From Verrucomicrobia bacterium GWF2_51_19 (GTDB lineage Bacteria > Verrucomicrobiota > Verrucomicrobiia > Opitutales > UBA12508), in the NCBI GenBank assembly GCA_001831095.1, contig MIDP01000011.1, positions 5,608-69,607 on the forward strand: 64,000 nt of DNA, in the 5' to 3' direction. Below are positions 9,605-42,032 of the stretch, piece by piece; position 1 is the first letter of the stretch, and every line of letters begins with the position of its first letter. Made by a program: the position numbers and the translations under genes. The notes under the pieces were generated by a model. The model ran no database searches, was not told the DNA's origin, and was given only the letters and a program-made list of their open reading frames with translations.

Positions 9605-9826
9605 ATGCAAAATGCCGTGAAAGCTCGTTTCGCGCTCCGCCTCCTGGCTCACGTACCATCGTACGCTACGCCAGCTCGTGCTCGCGCAAAGCCAAGCTTT
9701 GACGTCATTTTTCACAGGTTTTTATGGATCAATGATTTACATTTTATTAGAAAGGTAAGGCCGTTTGAAAATGTACATCAAAACTCGAGTGACGATAACG
9801 CAGCAGACATTTTACAAAGGTCTTAA
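9605..9826 (+). repeat. R2-linker-(degenerate R1) composite repeat (C2)
   Basis: Starts 6 nt after the fliF stop and is homologous to C1. Stem CTGGC...GCCAG replaces the CTGCC...GGCAG of C1. The track ORF 9605..9826 is its translation. Confidence 0.9.
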
Positions 9827-9829
9827 CTT

Positions 9830-16751: not shown

Positions 16752-16779
16752 TACTAAAATTTCAAAACATCAAAGATAA

Positions 16780-16900
16780 AGAGCGATTCAAAATGCGCCT
16801 ATAGCAAGGCCCGAGGAATGAGGGCGACGGGAGCCTACTTAAGGTAGGTGACCTAGCCCGAACGACGAGAACGCCGCTAGAGGCCATTTTCAATCGCTCT
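16780..16900. repeat. R1 quasi-palindromic repeat (solo copy between flgD and flgE)
   Basis: Sequence agagcgattcaaaatgcgcctatagcaaggcccgagga...gccgctagaggccattttcaatcgctct. The outer arms are complementary. Confidence 0.9.
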
Positions 16901-16913
16901 TCAGAAAGGGAAT

Positions 16914-21635: not shown

Positions 21636-22271
21636 ATGTCGTTCACTTTGCTTTTTGCCGATAAGGCTTTGAATGATGCAGCGAAGGATGGCAATTTGGA
21701 TGAAGTTAGCAGATTGCTCGAGCCATACAAAGATGATGAGGTCGCGCTCAAGAAATATGTCAATTGGCAGGATGAATACGACAACACCGCGCTGCTGGAG
21801 GCCGCGATGAATGGCCACACAGAGATTGTTGATCTCTTAATTGCAGCCGGTGGGGATCCAAACATTAAGACCAACGACGGCAGCAACGCGCTGATGTTGG
21901 CCGCGTGGTTTGGCAAAATAGATATTGTTAAGCTTTTAATTAAAGCCGCAACGAATCTAGACATTCAGAACGACAACGGCGACACCGCGCTGATGTTGGC
22001 CGCATGGTTTCGCATAACAGAGAAAACAGATATTGTTAAGCTCTTAATTGCTGCCGGAGCGAATCCAAACATTCAGAACAACCACCGCGATACCGCGCTG
22101 AGGTTTCTCGAAGAAGTATGCAAAAACAACACCGACATCATTAATCTCCTCACCAAATACGCAGAAAAGTACAATATCATTATGACATGTGCAAAGAAGC
22201 AGCGGAGGAATTACGCATTACGCTCGACGAAAAAGAGTCGGTCGCAAATCCAGACTCGACGATTTCGTTAG
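21636..22271 (+). CDS. ankyrin-repeat protein
   Basis: At least 4 ANK repeats (NTALLEAAMNGHTEIVDLLIAAGGDPN, SNALMLAAWFGKIDIVKLLIKAATNLD, DTALMLAAW...IVKLLIAAGANPN). The basic tail after residue ~182 looks like out-of-frame read-through. Confidence 0.85.
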   Translation: MSFTLLFADKALNDAAKDGNLDEVSRLLEPYKDDEVALKKYVNWQDEYDNTALLEAAMNGHTEIVDLLIAAGGDPNIKTNDGSNALMLAAWFGKIDIVKLLIKAATNLDIQNDNGDTALMLAAWFRITEKTDIVKLLIAAGANPNIQNNHRDTALRFLEEVCKNNTDIINLLTKYAEKYNIIMTCAKKQRRNYALRSTKKSRSQIQTRRFR

Positions 22272-22648
22272 CCATACGTATTTTATACGCCGCGAAGAAT
22301 GGTGTCATGACGGATGATACAGAGACTGCCGCGAAGAATGGTGTCATGACGGATGATACAGAGACTGCCGCGAAGAATGGTGTCGAGAGTGATGAATTAT
22401 TGGATGCGATCTACTGTCAGAATCAGAATAACGATGATTATAATGACGCACAAAATATCAGCGAAGAAGTGATTAATACGATGAGGCGCTTGATGGAAAC
22501 GGAAACAGAAATAAAAGCAATTACACTTAAGGGTTGGTCCTGGGATAAAATGAACCCTATCTCACCTCTCACACTTTTCTGCGAAGACTTTAAAGACTTT
22601 GAATTCGGAAACGATTCTGACTTCTATATTATTCCAAAAAACACTTAA
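22187..22648 (+). CDS. acidic hypothetical protein with AAKNGVMTDDTET repeats (possibly the frame-shifted C-terminus of the ankyrin gene)
   Basis: 153-aa ORF. Its frame is open from 22145 and overlaps the ankyrin ORF by 85 nt in another frame. Followed by a good terminator at 22678-22710. Confidence 0.55.
   Translation: MCKEAAEELRITLDEKESVANPDSTISLAIRILYAAKNGVMTDDTETAAKNGVMTDDTETAAKNGVESDELLDAIYCQNQNNDDYNDAQNISEEVINTMRRLMETETEIKAITLKGWSWDKMNPISPLTLFCEDFKDFEFGNDSDFYIIPKNT
22289..22394 (+). repeat. 39-bp tandem repeat (2.7 units)
   Basis: gccgcgaagaatggtgtcatgacggatgatacagagact appears twice exactly (22289-22327 and 22328-22366), plus a diverged partial third unit. Confidence 0.95.
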
Positions 22649-22677
22649 GCTATCGGCGATCAACGCAGCTGAACAAA

Positions 22678-22710
22678 GCGTGACTCGGAGAAACTCGTGT
22701 CACGCTTTTT
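22678..22710 (+). terminator. rho-independent terminator
   Basis: GCGTGAC-tcggagaaactcgt-GTCACGC followed by TTTTT. Confidence 0.7.
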
Positions 22711-22818
22711 CCATTCGAGTGTTGCGCTTCATTGTTTAATGGGCGATTGATTGAGGGCTATAGACCATTTTGCATCGATCTTGTTGACTTTTTTTAGAGA
22801 AAACGCTTACTAAGAGCC

Positions 22819-24792
22819 ATGGCCAGGCCAGTAAAGATTCAAGAGACGATGCAGCAATTGCGAGAGGCGATTGCGCATCACGATCGTCTGTATTACAAGG
22901 ACGCTCGACCGGAGATTTCCGATTTCGAATACGATTGTCTGAAGAACGAGCTGGCGTACATGGAAAAGCAATACCAAGAGACCGCGCCCCAGGCGGATTC
23001 CGTTGGCGACGACCGTATTGATGGCTTTCATACTCGCAAGCACCGGAGTCCCATGTTGAGCCTCACAAATTCTTACGATCGAGCGGATGTGTTTGATTTT
23101 GACAGACGATTGCGTGAAGACGGGCTCGCGTTTAGCTATGTCGTGGAGCCGAAGATTGACGGTGTCGCTGTCAGCCTGTGTTATGAACAGGGCCAATTGA
23201 TGCATGCCTTGACGCGCGGTAACGGTGTTGAAGGGGACGATATCACGCAAAATATACACACGATTGCTGGCATTCCAAAAAACTTGATGGCGCCCTTTCC
23301 GGATTTTGTGGAGGTCCGTGGAGAGGTTTACATGACCTTGAAGGACTTTGAGGCGGTCAACGTCAAGCGCGACGAAGATGGCATGCCGCCTTATGCCAAC
23401 CCCCGCAATCTCGCCGCTGGCAGCATCAAGTTGCTCGACTCGCGCGAGACTCGTGAACGTCCGTTGAGGGCCGTTTTTTACTCCGTTGGCGACGACGGGA
23501 ATGGCTTTAAGAGTGAATCGGAGATCTTGGAGGCCCTACATGCCTGGCAGTTACCCGTTTTGGAGCGCTACTGGGTTGCGAACACAATTGAAGCCGCCTG
23601 GGCACACATTGAAGAGCTCGACAAGCTCCGCCATTCTTTTTTGTACAACACCGATGGCGCCGTCCTCAAGGTGAACGAACGCGCCCTGCAGCGTCAATGG
23701 GGACATACTGCCAAAGCGCCCCGGTTTGCCATTGCCTACAAATTTGAGCCTGAGCAAGTCGAGACGCTCTTGGAAAAGATCCACATACAGGTCGGCCGAA
23801 CGGGCGTATTGACTCCCGTTGCGCAGTTGTCACCCGTCTTTCTATCTGGAACAACGGTAGCGCGGGCAACGCTTCACAACGCCGAAGAGATGGCGCGCAA
23901 AGACATCCGTGAGGGCGACACGGTTCTCATTGAAAAAGCTGGCGAAATCATTCCGGCCGTCCTCTCCGTCAACCTCGACAAGCGTCCCAAACTCTCCCAG
24001 CCCTTTGCGTTTCCAAAAACATGCCCGGCCTGCGGTGGCACCGTTAGCCGCGTCGATGGCGAAGTTGCGTGGCGCTGTCTCAACGTCAATTGTCCACCGC
24101 AAATCCGCCGCCGCCTGCTGCACTTTGCCTCGCGCTCAGCCATGGACGTCGAGCACCTCGGCGAAAGTGTCATCGATCAGCTCGTCTCACGCGGCTTTCT
24201 CAAAACGCTTGCTGACATCTACAGCCTGACGTCTACGCAATTGTCGCAGCTCGACGGATTTCGTGAAAAGTCTATCCAAAACCTCCTTGATGCCATCGAG
24301 CGCAGCAAGCACAATGAGCTCTGGCGCCTTCTACATGGCCTTGGAATTCAGTACGTCGGCGCGCAAACAGCCAAGGACCTCGCTTACGCGTTTTCCCTAA
24401 AAGAGCTCACAACGGCCACCGTCGAGGCCCTTTTGCGCGTTAATGGCGTCGGAGAAAAGGTCGCCAACAGCGTCTATCGCTTTTTTCACAACACAGACAA
24501 CCTGGCTCTGCTACAGCAATGGATCGATGCGGGCCTCGATCCACAACGCCCACAACGCAGCTCTGGAGCCCTCACTGGCAAAAAGTTCGTCCTCACAGGA
24601 ACGCTGCCAACGCTCTCCCGTGAGGCCGCCAAAGAGCTGATTGAAAAGGCCGGTGGCGTCGTCTCTGCTTCTCTCAGCGCGAAGACCGACTTTCTCCTCC
24701 TCGGCGACAACCCCGGCTCTAAGCTCGCTCAGGCACAAAAGCTCCAGGTCCCCATTCTTTCCGAGGCAGACCTTTTGAGGCTACTTATTTGA
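22819..24792 (+). CDS. ligA: NAD-dependent DNA ligase LigA
   Basis: 657 aa with the adenylation motif VEPKIDGVAVSL, a Zn-finger (CPACGGTVSRVDGEVAWRCLNVNCP), HhH motifs and a C-terminal BRCT domain (GKKFVLTGTL). Confidence 0.96.
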   Translation: MARPVKIQETMQQLREAIAHHDRLYYKDARPEISDFEYDCLKNELAYMEKQYQETAPQADSVGDDRIDGFHTRKHRSPMLSLTNSYDRADVFDFDRRLREDGLAFSYVVEPKIDGVAVSLCYEQGQLMHALTRGNGVEGDDITQNIHTIAGIPKNLMAPFPDFVEVRGEVYMTLKDFEAVNVKRDEDGMPPYANPRNLAAGSIKLLDSRETRERPLRAVFYSVGDDGNGFKSESEILEALHAWQLPVLERYWVANTIEAAWAHIEELDKLRHSFLYNTDGAVLKVNERALQRQWGHTAKAPRFAIAYKFEPEQVETLLEKIHIQVGRTGVLTPVAQLSPVFLSGTTVARATLHNAEEMARKDIREGDTVLIEKAGEIIPAVLSVNLDKRPKLSQPFAFPKTCPACGGTVSRVDGEVAWRCLNVNCPPQIRRRLLHFASRSAMDVEHLGESVIDQLVSRGFLKTLADIYSLTSTQLSQLDGFREKSIQNLLDAIERSKHNELWRLLHGLGIQYVGAQTAKDLAYAFSLKELTTATVEALLRVNGVGEKVANSVYRFFHNTDNLALLQQWIDAGLDPQRPQRSSGALTGKKFVLTGTLPTLSREAAKELIEKAGGVVSASLSAKTDFLLLGDNPGSKLAQAQKLQVPILSEADLLRLLI

Positions 24793-24804
24793 GGGGAGTG
24801 TGGC

Positions 24805-25189
24805 CCGCAATCATTAGCGACCGCAAAAGTTCACCCGCTGAAAATCAAAAATCATCTGATGTTAACTGGAATTGATGTTTTTTCTGACGGATTATTGGTC
24901 CGCGGTGAATGCGTCCGCAGACATACTAACTGCCTTTAGCTCTGCGTGTGGCAACACGCTCTGGATGCGTATACAGAAGTACTAACTCCTTCCAACTCTC
25001 TGCGTGTGGCAACACGCCCTCGATGCGCCGTTAGAGAGCTCGGCGGGTCTATGGAGCTGTTTGTGGCGCACTCCTTATGCCTCCGAGGGCGGCTTTGGTT
25101 GATTTTTTAAAATATCTGATATTGATTGATATTTAAAATATTCATTTTTTGTATTTAATATCCAGTATAGTTTTTAAATAAAAAGTCAA
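24805..25189 (-). ncRNA. candidate outward transcript H3 (leader Y, two S hairpin modules, tail type Z)
   Basis: Minus-strand TTGACT 25189..25184, 14 nt, TATACT 25169..25164. Followed by the core and two GCGTGT-ggca-ACACGC hairpins (around 24949 and 25004). Transcription is inferred. Confidence 0.3.
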
Positions 25190-25217
25190 GCTTTTTCGCA
25201 ATAAATCGTCGAGGCTA

Positions 25218-25486
25218 CCTCGATCCTTAGCGAAATTTCATTACCGCGCATCGGTTTTCCGATGCTCCCTTGAATGCGCCATTACAAGTACTAACTCCAT
25301 CCAACTCTGCGTGTGTCAACACGCCCTCGATGCGCCGTTAGAGAGCTCGGCGGGTCTATGGAGCCTTTTGTGGCGCACTCCTTCTGCTCTCGGAGGCGGC
25401 TTTGGCTGTAAAAACAAGATATTGGAATGGATTTATCGCTGTTTTAGAAAAAAATCTTCAAATATAGTATTTTTATAAAAAGTCAA
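25218..25486 (-). ncRNA. candidate outward transcript H4 (leader X, short tail)
   Basis: Minus-strand TTGACT 25486..25481, 14 nt, TATATT 25466..25461. Followed by the core, GCGTGT-gtca-ACACGC, and GCGCATCGG-tttt-CCGATGCtC. Confidence 0.3.
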
Positions 25487-25569
25487 GCTTTTTCGTAAAA
25501 ATTTTCGGCGCAGCAGAAGCTCTTTTAATATTTACATAATCAAAAAACAATCTCGATTCACTCATTCTA

Positions 25570-26037
25570 GGCTGCAACGAGCTTATGCGCTGCAACTCGA
25601 CGGCTTCGTTTTCGCACGAAGGGTTGCAATGAGCTTATGCGCTGCAACTCGACGGCTTTGATGCCGCATTCTGGGCTGCAACGAGCTTATGTGCTGCAAC
25701 TCGACGGCTTTGATGCCGCATTCTGGGCTGCAACGAGCTTATGTGCTGCAACTCGACGGCTTCGTTTCCGCACGAAGGGTTGCAATGAGCTTATGCGCTG
25801 CAACTCGACGGCTTTGTTTTCGCACGAAGGGTTGCAATGAGCTTATGCGCTGCAACTCGACGGCTTTGTTTCCGCAGTCTGGGCTGCAACGAGCTTATGT
25901 GCTGCAACTCGACGGCTTCGTTTTCGCACGAATGGTTGCAATGAGCTTATGCGCTGCAACTCGACGGCTTCGTTTTCGCACGAATGGTTGCAATGAGCTT
26001 ATGCGCTGCAACTCGACGGCTTTGATGAAGCGTTGGG
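25570..26037. repeat. 52-bp tandem repeat array, 9 units
   Basis: The units start exactly at 25570, 25622, 25674, 25726, 25778, 25830, 25882, 25934 and 25986. The conserved part is gcaaYgagcttatgYgctgcaactcgacggctt. The ~19-nt variable part occurs in only a few recurring variants (cgttttcgcacgaagggtt and tgatgccgcattctgggct types). Confidence 0.97.
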
Positions 26038-26097
26038 CGTTATATAGCTGTGTATGTCGGCACTGAATCTAGCCTCGACGATTTATTGCGAAAAAGC

Positions 26098-26453
26098 TTG
26101 ACTTTTTGTTTAAAAACTATATTAGACATTAAATACAAAAATTTGAATATTTAAAATCCGATATTTTTAAAAAAATCAGCTAAAGCCGCTCTCGAACACA
26201 GAAAGAGTGCGACAACAAGCGGCTCCCTAGACCCGCCGAGCTCTCTAACGGCGCATCCAGGGCGTGTTGTCACACGCAGAGCTTGAGGGAGTTAGTACTT
26301 CTGGAGACGCATTCACCGCAAACCGGTTAAATTTTTAGGAAAGCGTTTTCACTCTTTTGGTGAAATTTACATTAGAGCACACATGACCATGCAGGCGTCA
26401 ATTAGACAGGCAACGCAACTGATATGACTTATTTTTTTGCTAATGATTGAGGG
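26098..26453 (+). ncRNA. candidate outward transcript H5 (leader Y, long tail)
   Basis: TTGACT 26098-26103, 14 nt, TATATT 26118-26123. Followed by the core, GCGTGT-tgtc-ACACGC, the TCACC/GGTGA hairpin and the terminus. Confidence 0.3.
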
Positions 26454-27630
26454 AAATCACCCTCGTTGTCGAGTATTGCTTCCACCCTGGAAGAGTGGAG
26501 TCGTGCGGCGAAGGTTGCGGATTGAGCCAAAAGGCGTGAGAAACACAATCTTTGAAATGGGCTGGCGTTTCCGGCGGAGGAATCGGCGGGAATTTTGTCC
26601 AAGCGAGTTGAAAGAGTGTATTGGGAAGGACGGCAAAAAAAGTTTTGTAAAAATTCCAACTGTCTTGCTGCGTGAAAGCTTGATGCCAGCCAACTCGTCG
26701 ACACCAATGATTAGCCAGGTAGCATTCGGTCTGGGGAAGAAGGCGGCTGGCATCAAGGAGTATTGCCTCTGGAGCTGGTTCAATGCGATTATCGGTGTCC
26801 AATGGGAGAGCCCAATAGGCCCGGAGCGTATCGAGCGGCCCAAACATGACGAAATCAGAGGGATGATAGAGGAGGTACTTCATAGTGTACGCCTCTGGAA
26901 TGAAGAGCCGTGGGCGATCGGAATATTGATTGAGGGCGTCAAAGAGGTCGGTAAAGAGCGATGGACTCAGCGGAATGAGGTCCGTGCGGACCTTCAACGC
27001 ATGCGACCACCCCAAGGTTTGTGCCTTTTCAAACCCCGCGTGCGTGCTGACAATTTGCAGGTTACGATTGCCCCTGCCAGGCGATGGTTTTCGAGACAGA
27101 ACGATGTCGTCGATCCAGGCGTCTGCAGCCTTAAGTATGTCACAGTCAGCATCTTCCCAGGTTGACAAAATCAACTGTATCCCAGCATAGGTCGTTTTCA
27201 AGTAACGCAACAACAACAACGTTTCTTGCTCAACGGATCCCTGCATAACGATACCACAGTCGGCCGACACCGTTTGAGCCTTTGGGTTTTCCAGCTGAAA
27301 ATACAGGGCGTCGGTCAGCGCTAAATCGACCAAATGGGCGGCATTCAACCTCGGAAATCGCTCTGGAATCGCCCTTTCGATTGCCCCAAGCGCGCCAGAA
27401 AAAATCACTACAACCGTGCCATCACCTTCCGCATACAGTCGTTCGGGAGAACTCACCTCGATAGCACCAACACAGCTGTTCCAAAGCGTCGCATCACTGT
27501 CGACACAATACGCAAGGGGGACATTTACGTCCCCCTTCAGTGCTTCAAATAAAGACCCGACGCCCCAGCCGACAAACTTTTTAGCCGTCTTCAGCGTGGA
27601 TGCTAGCTGTTGGCCTTTTTTACTTTTCAA
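26440..27630 (-). CDS. hypothetical protein, possibly WavE-like LPS/glycan biosynthesis protein
   Basis: 396-aa ORF. The central/C-terminal region (ILSTWEDAD, GNRNLQIVSTHAG, ALKVRTD, YHPSDFVMFG) resembles my recollection of the WavE family (tentative). The last 4 codons and the TAG stop lie inside the A2 terminal repeat. Confidence 0.6.
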   Translation of the reverse strand: MKSKKGQQLASTLKTAKKFVGWGVGSLFEALKGDVNVPLAYCVDSDATLWNSCVGAIEVSSPERLYAEGDGTVVVIFSGALGAIERAIPERFPRLNAAHLVDLALTDALYFQLENPKAQTVSADCGIVMQGSVEQETLLLLRYLKTTYAGIQLILSTWEDADCDILKAADAWIDDIVLSRKPSPGRGNRNLQIVSTHAGFEKAQTLGWSHALKVRTDLIPLSPSLFTDLFDALNQYSDRPRLFIPEAYTMKYLLYHPSDFVMFGPLDTLRAYWALPLDTDNRIEPAPEAILLDASRLLPQTECYLANHWCRRVGWHQAFTQQDSWNFYKTFFAVLPNTLFQLAWTKFPPIPPPETPAHFKDCVSHAFWLNPQPSPHDSTLPGWKQYSTTRVISLNH

Positions 27631-27643
27631 AATGGCCTCTAAC

Positions 27644-28525
27644 TTATTTTTGAGCGGGCGCTTGAGTCGGTTGTTCCGCTGGCTTGGCAGGCTCGGCTAC
27701 GGGTGCAACGACATCCGCTGGCTTGGCAGGCTCGGCTACGGGTGCAACGACATCCGCTGGCTTAGCAACTTCCGCTGGCTTAGCAACTTCCGCTGGCTTA
27801 GCAACTTCCGCTGGCTTAGCAACTTCCGCTGGCTTAGCAACATCCGCTGGCTTAGCAGGCTCGACAACGGGTGTTGCTACCTCGGCGGGCTTCTCAGGAG
27901 CTGCTGTGGTTGGCGCTTCATCCTTAGTTTCAGGCGCAACCGCGATTATCGTTTCAGGCTGGTACAGCTTTTCTACCTCTGCAATGATTTTTATGGAATG
28001 CGTGCCGCAACCCACGATATATTCTTTGTTGCCATTTTTGACGAGCTTGACAAAGGACATTTTTTCGGTCGGTTTGTTGTCTCCAGGCTTGACCCACATG
28101 TACTTGACCCAAGCTTCACCACGGGCGTCCGTCTTAACCTTTCGATTCATCTCGGCGATAAAGTAATTGCCTTTGACGTCCCGAAGCTTGTTAGATTCAC
28201 GTCCTTCGAGCTTTGGCTTGACAGGATGCATGACAAAAAGACCGTCCGGGCTGTGAATCCAAATGTAGGTTCCACTGAAAATGAATGAGCTGTCTTTCCC
28301 TCTGAATTTCGGAAAAGCCGCCTCGCCCTCTTTCTCAATAAGGACCGCGCCCTCTCTCACCTTTTGCGTGATGAGGTCAGCGCTGATGGAGTCATTCTCT
28401 GTCGCGACGCATTTAGCTGAGCTCTCTTCTGCCAGATCATCGACATTGGTAGCCCTGAGGTAGGCAAAAGAGGTTAATCCGAGCAATATAGCTCCGGCCA
28501 ATAAATAAGGTCTGAATTTTTCCAT
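27644..28525 (-). CDS. secreted single-Cache-domain protein with repetitive PAEVAK / PADVVAPVAEPAK C-terminal tail
   Basis: 293 aa with a signal peptide (LLAGAILLGLTSFA). The Cache-like core is FIFSGTYIWIHSPDGLFVMHPVKPKLEGRESNKLRDVKGNYF...EAWVKYMWVKPG. The proline-rich tandem tail is encoded by the repeats at 27676-27861. Confidence 0.75.
   Translation of the reverse strand: MEKFRPYLLAGAILLGLTSFAYLRATNVDDLAEESSAKCVATENDSISADLITQKVREGAVLIEKEGEAAFPKFRGKDSSFIFSGTYIWIHSPDGLFVMHPVKPKLEGRESNKLRDVKGNYFIAEMNRKVKTDARGEAWVKYMWVKPGDNKPTEKMSFVKLVKNGNKEYIVGCGTHSIKIIAEVEKLYQPETIIAVAPETKDEAPTTAAPEKPAEVATPVVEPAKPADVAKPAEVAKPAEVAKPAEVAKPAEVAKPADVVAPVAEPAKPADVVAPVAEPAKPAEQPTQAPAQK
27676..27861. repeat. in-frame coding tandem repeats (2 x 39 bp, then about 6 x 18 bp)
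   Basis: ccgctggcttggcaggctcggctacgggtgcaacgacat appears twice (27676-27753), followed by ccgctggcttagcaactt units from 27754. Confidence 0.95.
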
Positions 28526-28608
28526 AGTACCAAAGGTTGTTGTCTTTCATTGTTAAATCGAAATACAGGAAAGTCAATACAAGAACGATTCACTTGAAAA
28601 CACTTCCA

Positions 28609-28929
28609 TCAATCATTAGCGACATTTTATTACCGCGCATCGGTTTTCCGATGCGCCCTGGATGCGCCTACAGAAGTACTAACTCCCTCCAACTCTGCGT
28701 GTAACAACACGCCCTGGATGTGCTTTGAATCTATCCGCCTACAGCTCTGCGTGTGGCAACACGCCCTGGATGCGCCGTTAGAGAGCTCGGCGGGTCTAGG
28801 GAGCCGTTGGTGGCGCACTCCTTCAGTCTCCGAGAGCGGATTTTGCTGTAAAAAAACAAGATATTTGAATGGATTTGTCGCTGTTTTTAGAAAGGAATCT
28901 TTAAATATAGTATTTTTATAAAAAGTCAA
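28609..28929 (-). ncRNA. candidate outward transcript H6 (leader X, two S modules, short tail)
   Basis: Minus-strand TTGACT 28929..28924, 14 nt, TATATT 28909..28904. Followed by the core, hairpins GCGTGT-ggca-ACACGC and GCGTGT-aaca-ACACGC, and GCGCATCGG-tttt-CCGATGCGC. Confidence 0.3.
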
Positions 28930-29105
28930 GCTTTTTCGTGTTTTTTTTGCGCTGCGGTATAACTGATCTTGGTGCGTAATTCACAAAGAATAATCTCGAT
29001 TCCCGCATACCAGGCCGCAGCCAACTTATACGCTATAGCTCGACGGACTTGATGCTGCATTGGGCGTTATATGCTATGTATGTCGGCCCTGAATTTAGCC
29101 TCGAC
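28609..29105. repeat. A-element copy A3, truncated (one half-unit plus central region, interrupted by A4)
   Basis: Left terminus tCAATCATTAGCGA at 28609-28622. The central region ends ...gaatttagcctcgac at 29105, directly abutting the terminus of A4. The Y-side half-unit is missing. Confidence 0.85.
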
Positions 29106-29468
29106 CTCAATCATTAGCGAAAAATAAGTCATATCGGTTGCGTTGCCTGTCTAATTGACGCCTGTATGGTCATGTGTGCTCTAATGTAAATTTCACCAAA
29201 TGGTGAAAACGCTTTCCTAAAAATTTAACCGGTTTGCGGTGAATGCGTCTCCAGAAGTACTAACTCCCTCAAGCTCTGCGTGTGACAACACGCCCTCGAT
29301 GCGCCGTTAGAGAGCTCGGCGAGTCTAGGGAGCTGTTGGTGTCGCACTCCTTCTGGGCCCGAAAGCGGCTTTGGATGATTTTAAAAAAAATATCGGATAT
29401 TGATGATGATTTTAAATATTCAAATTTTTGTATTTAATATCCAATATGGTTTTTAAACAAAAAGTCAA
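29106..29468 (-). ncRNA. candidate outward transcript H7 (leader Y, long tail)
   Basis: Minus-strand TTGACT 29468..29463, 14 nt, CATATT 29448..29443. Followed by the core, GCGTGT-gaca-ACACGC and the long tail. Confidence 0.3.
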
Positions 29469-29543
29469 GCTTTTTCGCAATAAATCGTCGAGGCTAGATT
29501 CAGTGCCGACATACACAGCTATATAACGCCCAACGCAGCATCA

Positions 29544-29795
29544 AAGCCGTCGAGTTGCAGCGCATAAGCTCATTGCAACCCTTCGTGCGAAAACGAAGCC
29601 GTCGAATTGCAGCGCATAAGCTGCATGTAGCCCAGAATGCGGCATCAAAGCCGTCGAATTGCAGCGCATAAGCTGCATGTAGCCCAGAATGCGGCATCAA
29701 AGCCGTCGAGTTGCAGCGCATAAGCTGCATGTAGCCCAGAATGCGGCATCAAAGCCGTCGAGTTGCAGCGCATAAGCTCGTTGCAGCCCAGAATG
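29544..29795. repeat. 52-bp tandem repeat array, about 5 units (inverted relative to 25570-26037)
   Basis: aagccgtcga(g/a)ttgcagcgcataagc recurs at 29544, 29596, 29648, 29700 and 29752, with exact 52-bp spacing. Three units carry a private variant ctgcatgtagcc. Confidence 0.95.
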
Positions 29796-29873
29796 CGGGA
29801 ATCGAGATTGTTTTTTTGGATTATGTAAATATTAAAAGAGCTTCTGCCGCGCCGAAAATTTTTACGAAAAAGC

Positions 29874-30146
29874 TTGACTTTTTATAAAAATACTATAATC
29901 GAGTATCTTATCTAAAAACAGCGATAAATCAATTCCAATATCTTGTTTTTACAGCCAAAGCCGCTCTCGAAGGCTGAAGGAGTGCGCCACAAAAGGCTCC
30001 CGAGACCCGCCGAGCTCTCTAACGGCGCATCGAGGGCGTGTTGACACACGCAGAGTTGGATGGAGTCAATACTTGTAATGAAATGATGCATCCAGTGCGC
30101 ATCGAAAAACCGATTCGCGGGCAAAAAATTTCGCTAATGATTGAGG
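29874..30146 (+). ncRNA. candidate outward transcript H8 (leader X, short tail)
   Basis: TTGACT 29874-29879, 14 nt, TATAAT 29894-29899. Followed by the core, GCGTGT-tgac-ACACGC, and a degenerate terminal hairpin. Confidence 0.3.
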
Positions 30147-30208
30147 GTGATTCAGCGTTGCTGATTTTTTTATTGACGGGCATGGCAAATAATTGAGTAA
30201 TGCTAAGT

Positions 30209-30358
30209 ATGAAGCAGTTCATTTTACTCTCGATAGCGTTGTTTGTGCTCGTCGGTTGTGCGACGACGGAACAAGAAAATACTGAGGCGCGCAAAAACTC
30301 GACGCTTCCATGGGCAAAGCCGGCGAGTTGGGAAGGCGGCCTCCCGGGACTGCGTTAA
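30209..30358 (+). CDS. small putative lipoprotein (49 aa)
   Basis: Found manually because it is below the track cutoff. Sequence MKQFILLSIALFVLVGCATTEQ..., with a signal peptide and lipobox LVGC. It ends 4 nt before the rsmE ATG. Confidence 0.45.
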   Translation: MKQFILLSIALFVLVGCATTEQENTEARKNSTLPWAKPASWEGGLPGLR

Positions 30359-30362
30359 ACGC

Positions 30363-31067
30363 ATGAACGTTTTTGAACGATCTTTTGGCGAACAGGCAAG
30401 GCTTTCTAGAGAAGAGAGTCATCATTTGGTTCGTGTTTTGAGGGCGCGTGTGGGTGACGCCGTTAATGTCTTAAATGGCGAAGGTGCTGTGGGCGTGGGT
30501 CGGCTGATCGATGCAAGCATTCCGGCCATTATTCGCATTGAAGAACGCAAGCAATACACGCGACCGGAGCCCCAAATCACACTTGGCATCTGCATTCCAA
30601 AGGGCAAGACCTTTGACTCTCTGCTGAAAAAGATCACGGAAATCGGCCTGTTTGACGTTTGCCCATTGCTGTCTGAGCGGACGGAAGTAAAACTCGACGC
30701 CGAAACGTCTGCCAAAAAGGCCGAACATTGGGAGCAGACCTGTATCGAGGCTTGCAAACAGTCATCCAACCCGTTTTTGCCCAAAATTCAAAAACCAAGC
30801 ACCTTGCAATCCTTTTTAGAGGCCTGTGACGCCGATTTAAAGATCGTTGCTAGCCTCGAGCCCGCTAGCCAGCCTCTGCTCGCAACGTTGAGGCCGTCAA
30901 AGCGTGTTGCCATGCTCGTGGGCCCCGAAGGAGACTTTTCTCCAGCCGAATACAGCCAAATCCGGACATGCGGCTTTCTGGCAACTTCTCTGGGCCGTAA
31001 CGTCCTCCGTGTAGAGACGGCAGTTGTCTACGCGTTGTCTGTCATCCACGCCGCGAGTTTGAGGTAA
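30363..31067 (+). CDS. rsmE: 16S rRNA (uracil1498-N3)-methyltransferase RsmE
   Basis: The N-terminal PUA-like region has EESHHLVRVLRARVGDAV, and the C-terminal SPOUT region has VGPEGDFSPAE and LGRNVLRVETA. The start was moved to ATG 30363; the track ORF starts at 30243. Confidence 0.85.
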   Translation: MNVFERSFGEQARLSREESHHLVRVLRARVGDAVNVLNGEGAVGVGRLIDASIPAIIRIEERKQYTRPEPQITLGICIPKGKTFDSLLKKITEIGLFDVCPLLSERTEVKLDAETSAKKAEHWEQTCIEACKQSSNPFLPKIQKPSTLQSFLEACDADLKIVASLEPASQPLLATLRPSKRVAMLVGPEGDFSPAEYSQIRTCGFLATSLGRNVLRVETAVVYALSVIHAASLR

Positions 31068-31195
31068 TTGACAACGGGCTTTTTGAACACTTAAAAGCCC
31101 CTCACGCATTTTTCAACGGCCTTTGATTGGCGACCCGTTTTTTAAAACATTGCTTTTCTTGCTTTTTAGTTAAAAATGAAAGGCCGTCACTTTTT

Positions 31196-31558
31196 ATGCT
31201 TGTCTTATCTGTAGCTCTCGGTGGTGCATTGGGTGCGTTGGCGCGATTGGGCCTGATGCAAGGCCTCCAATCTCTTTTTGGCGGAACGTTTCCTTACGCG
31301 ACGTTTGTCATCAACATTACTGGATCCTTTGCGCTCGGGTTTCTGCTCGAAATCTTTACCTGGACGTGGAACCCGTCTGCCGACACGAAGGCCTTTCTCG
31401 TCACCGGGTTTCTCGGAGCCTTCACCACATTCTCCACGTTCAGCATGGACATCGTCTTTCTCTTGCAAAAACGTGCTATGCTCGAAGCCGCTCTCTACGT
31501 CGCTGGCTCTGTTTTTTTCTCTCTAATAGGGTTTATTGCCGGCATGAAATGCGTCTAA
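31196..31558 (+). CDS. crcB: fluoride ion channel CrcB/FluC
   Basis: GGALGALARL, FPYATFVINITGSFALGF, GFLGAFTTFSTFS. The start was moved to ATG 31196, giving 120 aa. Confidence 0.88.
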   Translation: MLVLSVALGGALGALARLGLMQGLQSLFGGTFPYATFVINITGSFALGFLLEIFTWTWNPSADTKAFLVTGFLGAFTTFSTFSMDIVFLLQKRAMLEAALYVAGSVFFSLIGFIAGMKCV

Positions 31559-31559
31559 A

Positions 31560-31830
31560 AAAAGACCGCTCCAAAATGTCCTATAGCGTCGTTCGGGCTA
31601 AGTCACCTACCTCAAGTACGCTCCTGTCGCCCTCGCTCCTCGGGCCTTGCTATAGACGCATTTTGAAGCGGTCTTATGTCGTTGGTATTCTTTTAGTTAG
31701 ATTAAAGAATGGATACTACTGACTTTGCGCGAGTACGATTCGGCCGTAGTTGCATGGCTATCACTCCGGCTTCGCCAATTTTTTAAAGCGAAACACAAAA
31801 ATGCATGCATTTTTGCGCCGGTCTTTTGTT
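31560..31830 (-). repeat. R2-linker-R1 composite repeat (C3, R2 internally rearranged)
   Basis: On the minus strand it begins immediately after the stop (31829-31831) of ORF 31829..32389. The R1 part is 31562-31675. Confidence 0.85.
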
Positions 31831-32389
31831 AGAGATCTTCGGTTTTCTTCTGTTCTGTAGGTATTCCCGATAGGTCCATTTGGGCGATGAGGAGTATATT
31901 GAGCACGTCCTTGAGGTCGCTGGATTCGCATTCGAGGGCATGGGTCTTTTGGTTGAGCGACATCATCAGTGTTTTGAAGGACGCTGAGAGCTGTTGAGAA
32001 AAGAATTTCAGTTCGCGCTCGACGTTGAAAAAGGACTTCGGTGGATGGATTTCGCATTCCGCATAGGCCTTTTGGATGGGAACCAAGATGTCGGCAGAAA
32101 GTTCGGCTATATCGTGTGAGGCTTGGATGAGGTTTTCGACCGCGTTGATAAACGGTCCCATATTTTGGAGCAAAGATTTGATCCGGATGGACGATTCACG
32201 GATTTGGTCCTTGGTCAATGGGTGAATGCGAACCAATTCATCGCGTTCATCGGCAATTGCTTTCGCTAACAGGGCATCTTTTTCTTTGTCTTCCATGACA
32301 GCTCTCTCCGTTGAGGTTTGATACTGCATACATCGACATGGATAGGGAAAACATAAGCCAAAAGTTCCTCGCGAAATGAGAATTTTCAC
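31829..32389 (-). CDS. hypothetical protein (helical)
   Basis: 186-aa ORF. A likelier start is Met at 32296 (MEDKEKDALLAK...). No family recognised. Confidence 0.55.
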   Translation of the reverse strand: MKILISRGTFGLCFPYPCRCMQYQTSTERAVMEDKEKDALLAKAIADERDELVRIHPLTKDQIRESSIRIKSLLQNMGPFINAVENLIQASHDIAELSADILVPIQKAYAECEIHPPKSFFNVERELKFFSQQLSASFKTLMMSLNQKTHALECESSDLKDVLNILLIAQMDLSGIPTEQKKTEDL

Positions 32390-32395
32390 CTAAAA

Positions 32396-32512
32396 AGACC
32401 GCTTCAAAAGGGTCTCCAGGCCCGAGGAGCGAGGGCGACAGGAGCGTACGTTGGTACGTGACTTAGCCCGAACGACGAGAACGCCGCTAGAGGCCATTTT
32501 CAAGCGGTCTTT
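32396..32512. repeat. R1 quasi-palindromic repeat (solo copy)
   Basis: Sequence aagaccgcttcaaaagggtctccaggcccgaggagcgagggcgacagg...gccgctagaggccattttcaagcggtctt. Lies in the divergent region upstream of lptD. Confidence 0.88.
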
Positions 32513-32560
32513 CTGATTTTGTGCTTTTCTTTCGCTATTTCTGAGTTATATTGAGCAGCG

Positions 32561-34678
32561 GTGAAGACAGCATATATAATATTACTGACGGCCTGTACGC
32601 TCGTTTGGGCAGACGTTCCATCGATCAGTGCCGACGACCCCATTGAGTTCGATGAGGCGACGCAGAGCATGAAGGCGAAAGGTCGGGCGCGCTTGATGCA
32701 CGAAGCGTTTCAGTTGCTCTCTGAAACCATCCAGTTTTACAAGGAGCAAAACCGCATTGAGGCCAAGGGTGACGTCGCCATTGCCGCCAAAGAGATTCGT
32801 CTGATCACACCAGCAGTGTCGTGCGATATGAAAAAGGGCACTATCGATTCCGACACCTTTAGACTTGGCAAATTCCCGTTTTTCGTCGAAGGCAACAACA
32901 TCGATGGCGCCGTCAAGGACCTCCATGCCGATCACGCTACACTCTATTATGGTGAGCCAGACCCCTTTGCCCTCAATATTCGTTCGCGCACGATGGAGCT
33001 CGAGGACCTCAAAATCCTAAAATTGCGCCATTCCGTCCTTCGCATCGGCAAGGTGCCATTCTTCTATCTCCCTTATTATCAGAAAGATATAACAGACGAA
33101 TCAACGGTTCGCTGGAATGGATCGTATGGATTTGACAAGGAATTGGGCAAATACGTGCGCAACGAGGTCCTTTTCAGCTTGGGTCATCCGATCAAGCCAG
33201 GTTTTTTGCTCGATTACTACAGCAAACACGGGTTTATGTACGGTCCTGCGGCTGAGTATAAGGGGAAGGACTTCGATGGATCCCTCTTGACTGGCTATAT
33301 GCGCGACACCGGTAATCGCGGTTCGGATCGCTTTGCTCGACCCATTTCGGAATCGCGTGGCTTTGCGCGTTGGTACCACGTTCAGGGCTTTGGGGAGTCC
33401 ATTGACGCGACGGTAAAAGTCGATTGGTCGAAGGATCAGGAAATTTTGCGTGACTTTCGCCCAAATGAGTTCGACAAAAACCAGTACCCAGACAACTTTG
33501 CCGAGGTCGCCTATCGCGGAGAACAGACGATCGTCTCGGCCTTCACGCGCTTTGCCCCCAACAACTTTCAGCTGATTGAGCAACGTCTGCCGGAAGTGCG
33601 CGTCGATTTCATGCCGTACAAGGTTGGCGAAAGTTCACTCTACCTCGATGGCTTTTTGAGCTACGCCCACTTAAGAGAGCGCCGGCTGCCGTTTGCGGCG
33701 ACCGAAAAGCGCCACTCAGACCGCGTCGACAGCTACATCGGCGCCCGTTACCCACTTGCGCACGGCGATTGGGTAACTTTTACACCCGTTGTCGGCGCCC
33801 GCGTCACCCACTACGCCAACACCTCGACAGAGAAATCCTCATACACTCGCGGCCTTGGTCAGGTCGGCTTTGACCTCAATTGCAAAGGTTACCGCTATTG
33901 GGACTTTTCCAACAAGACCTGGAACATCGATGGCCTCAAACATCGCATTCAGCCATTTCTCTCCTACCGCTATATTCCCAAAGCCAGCCAAGGCAGCGCC
34001 GACATTCCCCAAATCGACCGCGAAAACGACAATGCCAACCGCATCAATTACCCCATTATCGACCTCGAACACCTCCGCAATACCGATGAACTCTACGAAA
34101 TGAACATCCTGCGTTTCGGCGCCACCAACTTCCTCCAGACGCGTTCGGGAATCTTTTCACGCGACCTCGTCAAGCTAGACCTCTTCCAGGACTTCCGTTT
34201 CGCCCGACACAATACCCAAAAGACCTTGTCCGATTTCTACTCCATCTTCAACCTAACGCCTGCGCCCTGGGTCTCCTTCGACTGGAAAAACCGCTATAAT
34301 TGGGAAAGCCACTCTCTCGCCGAGACTCGCACGACAACCACATTTACAGACAGCGATGTCTGGAAGTTGTCGCTCTCCTCAAGCTTTCTTAAAGACAAGA
34401 CTCACGAGTACTCTATTGATGGCAAAATCCGCCTCAGCCTCCGTTACGCCATCAAGGCAAAGCTCACTTACAACGAGCTCGCCAGGCGTGTCACGGACCA
34501 GCGGTACATTTTTGAGGGCCACCTCGGCCGCAATTGGCGCTACGAAATCTACGCCCTCATCCGCCACAACGACTCCCGCAAAACTTCCGAGTACGGCATC
34601 GCGTTTGAGCTCCTTGACCTCCTGTCTTCACGCCAACTCGCACTATATAGTGAAGATAGCAGCAGAAAGGGCAAATAA
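32561..34678 (+). CDS. lptD: LPS-assembly outer-membrane protein LptD (OstA family)
   Basis: 705 aa with a signal peptide, an OstA_N-like N-terminal region and a long aromatic-rich beta-barrel-like C-terminal region. GTG start per the track. Confidence 0.65.
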   Translation: MKTAYIILLTACTLVWADVPSISADDPIEFDEATQSMKAKGRARLMHEAFQLLSETIQFYKEQNRIEAKGDVAIAAKEIRLITPAVSCDMKKGTIDSDTFRLGKFPFFVEGNNIDGAVKDLHADHATLYYGEPDPFALNIRSRTMELEDLKILKLRHSVLRIGKVPFFYLPYYQKDITDESTVRWNGSYGFDKELGKYVRNEVLFSLGHPIKPGFLLDYYSKHGFMYGPAAEYKGKDFDGSLLTGYMRDTGNRGSDRFARPISESRGFARWYHVQGFGESIDATVKVDWSKDQEILRDFRPNEFDKNQYPDNFAEVAYRGEQTIVSAFTRFAPNNFQLIEQRLPEVRVDFMPYKVGESSLYLDGFLSYAHLRERRLPFAATEKRHSDRVDSYIGARYPLAHGDWVTFTPVVGARVTHYANTSTEKSSYTRGLGQVGFDLNCKGYRYWDFSNKTWNIDGLKHRIQPFLSYRYIPKASQGSADIPQIDRENDNANRINYPIIDLEHLRNTDELYEMNILRFGATNFLQTRSGIFSRDLVKLDLFQDFRFARHNTQKTLSDFYSIFNLTPAPWVSFDWKNRYNWESHSLAETRTTTTFTDSDVWKLSLSSSFLKDKTHEYSIDGKIRLSLRYAIKAKLTYNELARRVTDQRYIFEGHLGRNWRYEIYALIRHNDSRKTSEYGIAFELLDLLSSRQLALYSEDSSRKGK

Positions 34679-35433
34679 TGCAGTTGTTGTTTCTAGGAGA
34701 CATCGTTGGGCGCTCAGGTCGTGAGGTTGTCAAAAAGCAGCTCCCGCAGTGGCGCTCAAAGGGGGTTGATTTCGTCTTTGCCAATGGTGAAAACGCCGCC
34801 CACGGCTTTGGCATTACAAAGGGAGTCGCGCACGAACTCCGCGATATGGGTATCGACGCGCTCACGACGGGCAACCACGTCTGGGATCAGCGGTCATTTT
34901 TGCAGGACATCAACGATATTGACTTTGTCTGTCTGCCGGCCAATCTGCCCACACAGCAGCCAGGGAGGCGTCACATGATTGTTGAGCGCAATGGTAAAAG
35001 GGTGGGGCTATTCTGCCTCCTCGGACAGGCCTTTATGGCTGACAAGGTCAGCTGTCCATTCGAGATGGCCTCTAAAAAGGTTGCCGAGCTCGCCCCACTC
35101 TGCGACGCCATTGTCGTCGACTTTCACGCGGAAGCGACGGCCGAAAAAATGGCCCTCGGCTGGCATCTGGACGGCAAAGTCGACCTCATTGTCGGCACGC
35201 ACACCCACATTCCGACAGCCGACGCGCGCCTCTTGCCCAAAGGAACCGCCTACATCACCGACATCGGCATGTGCGGCTCCTACGACTCCATTCTGGGCTT
35301 CAATTACGACACCATTCTTCAAAAAGCCCTAGACGGATTGCCGCGCAAACACACCATTGCCACGGAAAACCTCAAGCTATCGGGCGTTCTAGTGTCGATA
35401 GGAAAACAGAACGCTATACAACTGATTTTTTAA
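34678..35433 (+). CDS. ymdB: YmdB-family metallophosphoesterase (2',3'-cyclic-nucleotide phosphodiesterase)
   Basis: LFLGDIVGRSGR, FANGENAAHGFGIT, TTGNHVWDQ, VDFHAEATAEK and GTHTHIPTAD match the TIGR00282-type pattern. Confidence 0.9.
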   Translation: MQLLFLGDIVGRSGREVVKKQLPQWRSKGVDFVFANGENAAHGFGITKGVAHELRDMGIDALTTGNHVWDQRSFLQDINDIDFVCLPANLPTQQPGRRHMIVERNGKRVGLFCLLGQAFMADKVSCPFEMASKKVAELAPLCDAIVVDFHAEATAEKMALGWHLDGKVDLIVGTHTHIPTADARLLPKGTAYITDIGMCGSYDSILGFNYDTILQKALDGLPRKHTIATENLKLSGVLVSIGKQNAIQLIF

Positions 35434-35436
35434 GCC

Positions 35437-36390
35437 ATGGAACTCGCCAATCTGTTTCCAGAAAGTATTCTCGAGCGGCCAATGCTCGTCGTTGGTCATA
35501 TACGCGCCGATGGTGATGCTATTGGGGCCCAAATCGCACTGTGTCGCGCGCTCAACGCCAAGGGCTTTCGGGCAAAGCTCTTGGTTGATAAAGACATTCC
35601 ACACAAATTCCTGCCATTTATCGGCGACACACCCAACGAGCCAGCCACGTCGTTCTCGTACAGTGGAGAGGCCATTTGCGCAGTTGACTGTGCTGGAAAA
35701 GAGCGCCTGTCGCCATTCTTCGATCAAGCGATCGACGTCAACATCGACCACCACAACCTCAATCCCAAATTCGCCACCCATAACTATGTCCAAACGGCCA
35801 GCTCTACCTGCGAACTCCTCGCCGAGCTCCTCCTCGACGCCCGGTGGCCCATTGACGCCGTGTCGGCAAATGCCCTCTACCTCGGCATCGTCACCGATTC
35901 TGGCCAATTCGTTCACACCGAAACGACTGCAGAGACGCACCGGATAGCCGCAACGTTGGTTGACCTAGGCGCCAAGCCAGAGGCCATTCACGACGTCCTC
36001 TATCAGCACGAATCGCTGCCAACCTACAAGCTCCTACAACGCTTTTTGGACTCCCTCCAGCTCTTTTGTGACGGTTCGCTATGCATCGGCATGCTCTTTC
36101 TTGCAGACTTTGCTGAAACCGGAACGACGCACGCAGCAACCGAAGATTTCGTCAATTATCCGCGATCGATCGACGGTGTAGCCATCTCTGCCTTTATCGA
36201 AGAAACACGCGATGGCACACGAGTCAGCATGCGCGCCCGTCAGCCGTCTGCACGCCTCGATCTCATTGCAAAAAACTTCGGCGGCGGTGGCCACCCATCT
36301 GCAGCTGGCTTTGCATCAAAGTTTTCACCTAACGATGTCGTCCCCGTCCTCGTGAAAGCCCTACAAAGACCGATACAAAATGATTTCTAG
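35437..36390 (+). CDS. nrnA: DHH-family phosphoesterase NrnA (oligoribonuclease/pAp phosphatase)
   Basis: GHIRADGDAIGA, VNIDHHN and GGGGHPSAAGF. Confidence 0.88.
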   Translation: MELANLFPESILERPMLVVGHIRADGDAIGAQIALCRALNAKGFRAKLLVDKDIPHKFLPFIGDTPNEPATSFSYSGEAICAVDCAGKERLSPFFDQAIDVNIDHHNLNPKFATHNYVQTASSTCELLAELLLDARWPIDAVSANALYLGIVTDSGQFVHTETTAETHRIAATLVDLGAKPEAIHDVLYQHESLPTYKLLQRFLDSLQLFCDGSLCIGMLFLADFAETGTTHAATEDFVNYPRSIDGVAISAFIEETRDGTRVSMRARQPSARLDLIAKNFGGGGHPSAAGFASKFSPNDVVPVLVKALQRPIQNDF

Positions 36391-36575
36391 CGGCGTTCTT
36401 CCCGCAGGCGCTTTATGTCGTTGTTATTCATCTAGTTAGCTCAAAGACCTGGGCGAAATGGATGCAAAAATGTGGCTTTGCGCGAGTACGATCTGCCGTA
36501 GCGTACATAAACGTACGTGAGGCAGTCGACGGAGAGCGAAACGCATTTTGGCGCCATTTCACCCAGGTCTTTGGG
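36385..36575 (-). repeat. R2-linker-(R1 remnant) composite repeat (C4)
   Basis: On the minus strand it starts directly after the stop (36576-36578) of ORF 36576..37310. The R1 remnant tctagcggcgttct contains the nrnA stop codon. Confidence 0.85.
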
Positions 36576-37310: not shown

Positions 37311-37340
37311 CTTCTTATTGATTGTGGTTCAAATCACAAT

Positions 37341-37657
37341 AATCATTAGCGAAAAACAAGTCATACCGACCGCTTCCCATTTCTAATTGAGGCTTACATG
37401 GTCATGTGTGCTCTAATTTAAATTTCACCAAATGGTGAAATCGACTTCCTGAATTTTTAACCGGTCCGCGTCTGCAAGACTCCCTCGATGCGCCATTGGA
37501 GAGATTGACGGATCTATGGAGCCGTTTGTGGCGCACTCCTTCTGTATCCGAGAGCGGCTTTGGCTGATTTTTTAAAAAATATTGGATATTGATGAGGGTT
37601 TTAAATATTTATTTTTTTGTATTTAATGTCTAATATAGTTTTAAAACAAAAAGTCAA
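37341..37657 (-). ncRNA. candidate outward transcript H9 (leader Y, long tail, diverged core)
   Basis: Minus-strand TTGACT 37657..37652, 14 nt, TATATT 37637..37632. The core carries several substitutions, including a compensatory G-C to A-T change in the CGCCG/CGGCG stem. Confidence 0.3.
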
Positions 37658-37906
37658 GCTTTTTCGCAATAAATCAGAGATACCAGATTCATAGTCGAAA
37701 GGCACAATGCCATAACGCCCAACGCAGCATCAAAGTCGTCGAGTTGCAGCACATAAGCTCGTTGCAGCCCGGCGTGCGGAAACAAAGCTGTCTAGCTATA
37801 ACGCCCAAGCTAGTTGCAGCCTAGTACAAGAGAATCGAGATTGTTTTTGTGGATTATGTAAATATTAAAAGAGCTTTTGCCTCGCCGAAAATTTTTACGA
37901 AAAAGC

Positions 37907-38171
37907 TTGACTTTTTATAAAAATACTATAGTCGAGTATTTTATCTAAAAACAGCGACAAATCCATTTCAAGCTCTTGTTTTTACAGCCATAGCCGCTCT
38001 CGGATGTAGAAGGAGTGCGCCATCAAAGGCTTCCTAGACCCGCCGAGCTCTCTAACGGCGCATCGAGGGCGTGTTGACACACGCAGAGTTGGATGGAGTT
38101 GGTACTTGTAATGGCGCATTCAAGGGAGCATCGGAAAACCGATGCGCGGTAATAAAATTTCGCTAATGATT
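37907..38171 (+). ncRNA. candidate outward transcript H10 (leader X, short tail)
   Basis: TTGACT 37907-37912, 14 nt, TATAGT 37927-37932. Followed by the core, GCGTGT-tgac-ACACGC, and the hairpin GaGCATCGG-aaaa-CCGATGCGC. Confidence 0.3.
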
Positions 38172-38415
38172 GTGGTTCAAATCACAACAATGCATTGAAT
38201 ATGGGGATTGTTTTTGTTGACAATAACGTTTCTATTTTTACTCTGCCTTCTTGAGTTAAGTGCTTGTGTCGCATCTTTTTACATTACATCTCCGCTCGCT
38301 ACCACTCTTTTCGTCCGAGTGTTGCACTTCATTGTTTAATTGGCGTGAGGTACATGCGGTACGTGACTTAGCTCGAACGACGAGAGCGCCGCTACCAATT
38401 TTGCCAATGTCTTTT

Positions 38416-41883: not shown

Positions 41884-42032
41884 CGGTCTTTCCTTTCGTG
41901 TAAGTTGTTAATGCGCAAAAGACCTATGATAAATGTTCTCAAAGTTTGACTTTGCGCGAACACAACCTGGCGTAGCGTACATAGACGTACTTGAGACAGT
42001 CGTCGCAGAGAAAAACGAGCTTTCACGGCATT
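41772..42032 (-). repeat. R2-linker-R1 composite repeat (C5)
   Basis: On the minus strand R2 begins inside the last 5 codons of the OleA-like gene and supplies its TGA (42025..42023). The R1 part is 41772-41895. Confidence 0.9.

Follow-up and report, generated by a model that had tools for sequence, protein, structure and literature searches.

A Likely MITE-Like Repeat Family with a Copy-Number-Variable 52-bp Tandem Module in a Groundwater Verrucomicrobia Bacterium

The BOX elements of pneumococci are MITE-like composite repeats of the form boxA-(45-bp boxB)n-boxC, in which the boxB module is present in 1–17 units and varies between strains (PMC3049150, PMC1315331). In both Streptococcus pneumoniae and S. 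suis, BOX copies cluster and insert into one another, and slippage or unequal crossover has been put forward to account for changes in their length (PMC3049150, PMC1315331, PMC10969869). Within a 64,000-nt stretch of the genome of Verrucomicrobia bacterium GWF2_51_19 from Rifle groundwater (hereafter the window), we noted a repeat family for which BOX elements are the closest known analogue. The analogy is one of function only, that is, the family would work like BOX without being a member of it. Both are dispersed composite repeats with inverted-repeat ends and a tandem central module (45 bp in BOX, 52 bp here), the count of which varies between loci and strains. The present family, however, occurs in an unrelated host phylum, is set apart by its organisation rather than by a sequence comparison with BOX, is much larger (0.73–1.2 kb), and shows clear 8–10-bp target duplications, which are not evident in BOX. 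Unlike BOX, it also carries two near-invariant 19-bp boxes that flank the array, and no stable hairpins are predicted for its units.

Other described systems share parts of this organisation. Correia elements (CREE) of Neisseria are MITEs that carry promoters directed outwards, and they can bring about inversions as well as changes in expression (PMC10969869). The parallel with the present MITE-like family lies in MITE-borne promoters (putative in our case) and in MITE-mediated inversion, whereas CREE are about 100–155 bp long, have TA target duplications, and contain no internal tandem array. The BIME-2 clusters (REP/palindromic units) of E. coli are built of hairpin-forming units bound by IHF and gyrase; like the present family, they are intergenic mosaics containing a variable number of tandem iterations of a motif pair, but they are without TIR or target-duplication boundaries. 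The MIRU-VNTRs of Mycobacterium are intergenic minisatellites of ~50 bp that are scattered over the genome and polymorphic in copy number. The arrays described here resemble them in all of these respects, including a unit of about 50 bp, but MIRUs have no TIR or target-duplication bounds, lie within operons, and contain small overlapping ORFs.

Each element in the family is ordered as TIR, modular hairpin-rich arm, 19-bp box, Y flank, (52-bp unit)n, X flank, 19-bp box, arm, and TIR. The TIR is 17 bp long (CCTCAATCATTAGCGAA), and the window contains 12 matches to it where 0.22 are expected, arranged as inverted pairs. Direct repeats of 7–10 bp flank eight of the nine simple complete copies (e.g., GTTCGTTGCC, GTCTTACAAG, GTAAAGACGC, and GGCATACTA), and it is from these target-site duplications only that we infer the mobility of the element. 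Full copies measure 728–1,235 bp, while variants of 45 bp and 180 bp share the same TIRs. MITEs are usually shorter than ~0.5 kb, making elements of 730–1,235 bp large for the class. Two complete MITE-like copies carry the longer arrays of the window, A2R (25218–26452, reverse strand, with both boxes located and TIR matches at 25218 and 26436–26452) and A4 (29105–30146, forward strand, with perfect TIRs at 29105 and 30130–30146). The two are inverted relative to each other and align as inverted-repeat pairs (I1, I3, and I12) at 88–95%; in their target-site duplications they are exceptions, pairing with each other after inversion, as described below. Further copies are A1 (4468–5195, 728 bp), the centre of which is one degenerate stretch of unit length and which is flanked by the repeat ATTTTTG, and A5 (37337–38175, 839 bp), with two units.

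No transposase gene was found inside the elements, the sole ORF of at least 80 aa within any copy being that of the array, which has no Pfam match, and no autonomous IS or transposase with a matching TIR was found in the window or in the further loci analysed. One TIR pair (47389/48879) was considered as a candidate autonomous IS and ruled out, the enclosed gene being an alanine dehydrogenase. Around this gene (47558–48679) we noted partial MITE ends, comprising a TIR and hairpin (47389–47480) on one side and an arm core and TIR (48720–48879) on the other, which may be the remnant of another rearrangement. Given this architecture, we consider it likely that the arrays form the middle part, variable in copy number, of a non-autonomous, MITE-like transposable repeat specific to this lineage, a modular MITE organised like BOX and with the 52-bp units as an internal minisatellite.

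Some members depart from the common form. A 45-bp miniature at L091 8446–8490 consists of two TIRs only, and a 180-bp miniature at L115 5579–5758 consists of TIRs, one 52-bp unit, and one hairpin, without the 19-mer boxes. The A5 copy is flanked by an unusually long 16-bp direct repeat, GTGGTTCAAATCACAA (37321–37340 and 38169–38188), which misfits the 8–10-bp duplication of the other copies, and the TIR on its left side has the altered sequence CAATAATCATTAGCG. Tandem duplication is also seen in the arms, where the module GAGGGCGTGTTGNCACACGCAGAG…TACTT… is duplicated one to three times (e.g., 24895–25030, 28648–28775, and L125 3145–3625) and has a hairpin that exists in alternative, compensated versions, GCGTGT…ACACGC and GCGTCT…AGACGC. 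A search for structured RNA in the conserved arm core found a covarying helix on neither strand.

The two long arrays had been noticed previously as exact 52-bp tandem arrays of nine units and five inverted units. The arrays are real and exceed chance expectation by a wide margin, and both counts were borne out. Tandem Repeats Finder placed the first array at 25573–26022 (period 52, 8.7 copies, 89% matches, 0% indels) and the second at 29538–29798 (period 52, 5.0 copies, 89% matches), while a profile search built from the units returned nine units on the reverse strand at 25558–26024 and five on the forward strand at 29542–29801. Together with the unit listing, these place the nine-unit array of A2R at about 25558–26037 on the reverse strand, a count that comes from the window assembly only, as short-read contigs enter the array from either side and none span it. 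The opposite orientation of the two arrays is also seen as inverted-repeat pairs I1 and I4–I7. "Exact" holds for the period, which is free of indels, but not for the unit sequence, which matches at ~89%.

The variants that had been described as coupled across unit boundaries are real and resolve into three unit types, here termed alpha, beta, and gamma. The A4 array reads alpha, gamma, gamma, gamma, beta, while that of A2R is a three-unit higher-order repeat, (alpha alpha beta)(alpha alpha beta)(beta alpha beta), which is the reason for a second period of 156 bp (3.0 copies, 92% matches by Tandem Repeats Finder) and which points to growth of the A2R array by duplication of blocks. The other copies in the window hold one or two units, in keeping with the preliminary description: two in A5 (37731–37827), one in A3 (29000–29046), and, in the centre of A1, a single unit-length remnant too degenerate for the unit profile.

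Across 58 distinct units, the consensus reads cAAaGCCGTCGAG-nnnnn-GCgcATAAGCT-nnnT-gCAGCC-caGnaTGCggnaa, in which the blocks AAAGCCGTCGAG, ATAAGCT, CAGCC, and TGCGG are conserved while adjoining positions vary freely, a pattern that could reflect binding-site constraint. The TGCAAC-based repeats proposed previously fared less well. Both the inverted form, GTTGCA-N14-TGCAAC, and the direct form, GCTGCAAC-N10-GCTGCAAC, do occur in the A2R and A4 arrays; however, the former is limited to units of the alpha type in A2R and A4 and is missing from the units of other copies, and the motifs are not conserved across the family. Single-strand folding of the units was no better than that of shuffled sequences (z −0.6 to +0.5), and a hairpin or cruciform reading was ruled out on these equal folding energies.

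One reading of the arrays is that they code for protein, with a 125-aa ORF (25689–26066) specifying a 52-residue-repeat protein. This ORF stays open through seven units, and phmmer matched it to nine library proteins with E-values up to 0.001. Its openness, however, follows from the 156-bp higher-order repeat; it has no Pfam match, the A4 and L050 arrays carry stops in all six frames, and changes of a single 52-bp unit would shift the frame. Three inspected library matches furthermore look like three-frame translations of tandem DNA, and for P0012 the DNA level confirms a 55-bp, 71-copy satellite. We therefore regard a coding role as almost certainly false. The earlier argument against a repeat protein, that 52 is not a multiple of three, reached the right conclusion but was incomplete, given an ORF open through seven units. 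The highest-ranking protein "homologue" of this ORF proves to be a gene called across a 55-bp, 71-copy satellite on an unrelated long-read contig (L143 653–4574), a case that illustrates how tandem DNA arrays enter protein databases as spurious repeat proteins.

The alternation of a ~28-bp constant part with a ~24-bp variable part could also suggest that the array is CRISPR-like, or is transcribed and processed to small RNAs in some other way. The variable parts are, however, three recurring variants rather than unique spacers, and no Cas protein was found among the 27 window ORFs scanned against Pfam; the earlier judgement that the arrays are not CRISPR was correct. Both boxes face outwards and have the array upstream of them, the units fold no better than shuffles, and the unit belongs to a MITE. 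Rfam returned no match at gathering thresholds, and a weak STnc150 match in E-value mode (E = 0.069) was taken as chance. On this evidence, a CRISPR-like or small-RNA array is extremely unlikely.

Unit number varied both between loci and between assemblies of the same locus. Box-to-box distances in 18 copies were 195–199, 243–250, 295–303, 315, 377, 406, and 612, with 354 in L139, and fit 198+52n except for 315 and 377. By profile search, the elements hold 1, 2, 3, 5, at least 5 (at a contig end), or 9 units. The A4 array has five units in the window and, exactly, in two other assemblies (L140 and L141), compared with four in L139, where the four-unit junction is absent from the five-unit sequence. 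In the A2R array, L002 joins unit 4 straight to unit 6, the window's unit 5 being missing, and both L003 and L139 carry a variant base at 25820 marking the unit 4–6 junction, consistent with L002. These single-unit differences come from short-read assemblies, in which assembly error is possible in principle. As read from such assemblies, the 52-bp arrays are VNTRs (minisatellites) with a copy number that is polymorphic within one population. The earlier reading of the arrays as expansion-prone satellites is supported, with differing unit numbers among the copies and single-unit differences at both arrays.

The lengths themselves could be assembly artefacts, a reading to which some of the contigs lend weight. 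Four of the six ligA-bearing contigs stop inside the nine-unit array, and contig L001 is probably chimeric at a shared box. Against this, two independent assemblies match the five-unit array base for base, independent contigs recover units 1–4 of the long array from the left side and units 6–9 from the right side, and other loci hold arrays of three, five, and at least five units; we thus consider artefactual lengths very unlikely. Contig L001 (ERZ27254744 k141_638636, 8380–10555) was also considered as a strain variant and ruled out. It matches the window up to 25207 and then reads as locus L132, switching at the shared 19-mer box into an L132-like central region and arms; the repeat probably gave rise to a chimera during assembly.

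Other tandem repeats of the host genome likewise differ between assemblies. The Cache-domain gene (27644–28525) contains in-frame 39-bp and 18-bp tandem repeats at 27675–27857, and its product, depending on the 18-bp repeat, measures 293 aa (window and L139), 287 aa (L141), or 275 aa (L140), so that the population is polymorphic for a coding VNTR. An ORF without a Pfam match (22187–22648) contains a perfect tandem repeat of 39 bp (2.5 copies, 22289–22384), which appears one unit shorter in L001.

Under the modular-MITE reading that we prefer, units would be gained and lost through unequal homologous recombination or replication slippage between units, and the two neighbouring inverted copies, A2R and A4, would have expanded to nine and five units, respectively. 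The array would have no dedicated function of its own. Structurally, each further unit of 52 bp (~5 helical turns) widens the gap between the two boxes and extends the homology available for recombination.

That array-bearing copies do recombine is seen in A2R and A4 themselves, which, as long inverted homologies, have recombined and inverted the ~3.9-kb segment between them. This segment contains the Cache-domain gene, the WavE-like gene, and half of an older element. The flanks of A2R and A4 find no match within either copy; rather, the pairing is across copies. The target-site duplication TCGAGGCTA occurs on the forward strand at 25209–25217 and, now inverted, as its reverse complement at 29096–29104; such an inverted pair is what an inversion between the two copies leaves behind. 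In line with this pairing, the left flank of A2R (…GTCGAGGCTA) matches the reverse complement of the left flank of A4. A second insertion left the duplication GGTGATTTC on the reverse strand at 26453–26461, within the last codons of the WavE-like gene, and this pairs with GGTGATTCA on the forward strand, which is followed by the displaced gene end, GTG ATT CAG CGT TGC TGA, and a terminator hairpin; the whole stretch covers 30146–30175, with the gene end and hairpin at 30147–30175.

The effect on the WavE-like gene (26440–27630, reverse strand) is that its final three codons and stop (LNH*) come from the MITE TIR, while its probable original in-frame last codons and intrinsic terminator lie beyond A4, 3.7 kb away and on the other strand. 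The displaced terminator is made up of the hairpin TCAGCGTTGCTGA and a T-run, with a terminator-like site at 30152–30164. The closest homologue of the WavE-like product is only 39% identical.

The older element, E0, is likewise split. Its Y half, A2L (24805–25217, reverse strand), ends in TCGAGGCTA and abuts the TIR of A2R, while its X half, A3 (28607–29104, forward strand), carries the single 52-bp unit noted above. When A2L was joined to the reverse complement of 28607–29095 and compared to the intact copy L082, one HSP ran across the junction (87.6% over 597 nt). The cross-copy pairing of the duplications, the split element, and the displaced terminator together show that the segment was inverted by recombination. 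The simplest history is one of three steps, in which one copy would have gone into E0, a second copy into the 3′ end of the WavE-like gene, and recombination between the two would then have flipped the intervening segment. With the ancestral order restored, every gene from 21636 to 36390 falls on a single strand. All assemblies spanning the short (A4) array show the present orientation, and among them we found no evidence of ongoing switching of the segment. The arrays had been listed as a possible recombination substrate, which in a wider sense they are, given that the copies bearing them recombined and flipped the segment between them.

The most conserved parts of the centre lie outside the array. 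The X-side 19-mer box, CGAAAAAGCTTGACTTTTT (25477–25495, reverse strand), comprises a −35-like hexamer, TTGACT, followed only 14 nt on by a TATAAT-like hexamer (TATA(A/T)T), and its mirror image forms the Y-side box at 26089–26107 on the forward strand. Every one of the ten half-elements in the window has the box. When 16 copies were aligned, the 19-mer boxes proved near-invariant and the first unit was the least conserved stretch of the centre, suggesting that the 52-bp units are under weaker constraint than the flanks and the boxes. Although these had been called promoter-like boxes, a consensus promoter scan did not call them as promoters; the near-invariant 19-mer stands, while "promoter-like" is a label and not a result. 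A role for the boxes as promoters of neighbouring genes was considered and is unsupported, with ten flanking genes pointing away from and ten towards the element, a balance expected from random intergenic insertion and not from a dedicated promoter cassette.

The placement of the array exactly between these two boxes nonetheless bears on another reading, in which the units are binding sites for a regulator, nucleoid protein, or transposase that controls or insulates the flanking boxes, with copy number tuning occupancy or spacing in ~5-turn steps. Conserved sub-blocks within otherwise variable units would fit this, as would a unit of 52 bp, or ~4.95 helical turns at 10.5 bp per turn. The units are, however, less conserved than the flanks and boxes, and the TGCAAC motifs that had been put forward earlier are not conserved. 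Unit number ranges from one to nine with no pattern tied to neighbouring genes (ten away, ten towards), no candidate binder is encoded beside the elements, and the boxes themselves were not called as promoters. Weighing these points, we regard a protein-binding role as unlikely. More speculative, and rather less probable still, is a mobile cassette with two outward-facing control boxes, in which the units would bind a transposase-derived or host protein, unit number, changing in ~5-turn steps, would set the activity or coupling of the boxes, and expanded arrays would be hotspots for inversion of genes between two copies. If true, this would amount to a transposable, copy-number-tunable bidirectional regulator.

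The geometry of the arrays had also been likened to iterons or partition centromeres. The sopC locus of F, parC of R1, and plasmid iterons are single loci beside par or rep genes, with a protein-binding inverted repeat in each unit. The present arrays share with them head-to-tail repeats in regular helical phase, but their units are scattered as parts of a transposable repeat, lack par/rep context, and have no conserved inverted repeat. A sopC-like or parC-like role in replication or segregation would be in keeping with the head-to-tail arrangement, the near-integral helical period, and an adjoining AT-rich segment. It is at odds with the presence of units in 20 or more dispersed, TIR- and target-duplication-bounded copies, with an inverted repeat confined to one unit variant, and with the lack of similarity between the element and plasmid or phage records. 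The genes neighbouring the array-bearing copies, LigA, the WavE-like gene, the Cache-domain gene, and RsmE, include none of the rep or par type. The sole ParA-like ORF (60394–61269) is 34 kb away, with no ParB, and has no link to the arrays, for which it had been named as a speculative candidate binder. An iteron or centromere function is therefore exceedingly improbable, and the likeness put forward in the preliminary description is not sustained. The ORF itself encodes a ParA/MinD-like ATPase and lies between a dihydrofolate reductase gene (reverse strand) and RNase III.

Beyond the window, which holds at least five copies, the family is carried by at least 19 further contigs of the host organism, identified in a metagenome scan with the arm motif (BLAST-filtered) and all from data sets Ga0209417 and Ga0154578. 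The units are spread over 20 or more chromosomal sites bounded by TIRs and target-site duplications. A scan of the reference genome collection with the 19-mer box gave single chance matches in unrelated MAGs only, and scans of the viral collection with the unit and with the arm motif gave no match.

The host genome is unusually rich in interspersed repeats. Besides the MITE, and unrelated to it, at least one other family of repeats (GGGCTAGGTCACCTACC… / …CCCGAACGACGAGAACGCCGCTAGAGG) is scattered between genes, with repeats at 1001–1069, 7528–7655, 16779–16906, 31595–31663, 32453–32511, 38358–38416, and 41810–41878, and also at 36456–36571, 41930–42045, and 43971–44086.

These findings remove a false lead, the arrays being neither iteron, centromere, nor CRISPR-like locus. 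They point instead to a repeat family not found in the databases searched, a large modular MITE family from an uncultivated Verrucomicrobia lineage that is organised like pneumococcal BOX. Element sites account for breaks in the short-read assemblies of the host organism, and the arrays are ready VNTR markers that could track strains of the host population in the aquifer. The family visibly reshapes the genome that carries it, through nested insertions, the replacement of a gene 3′ end by TIR sequence, and an inversion of ~3.9 kb.
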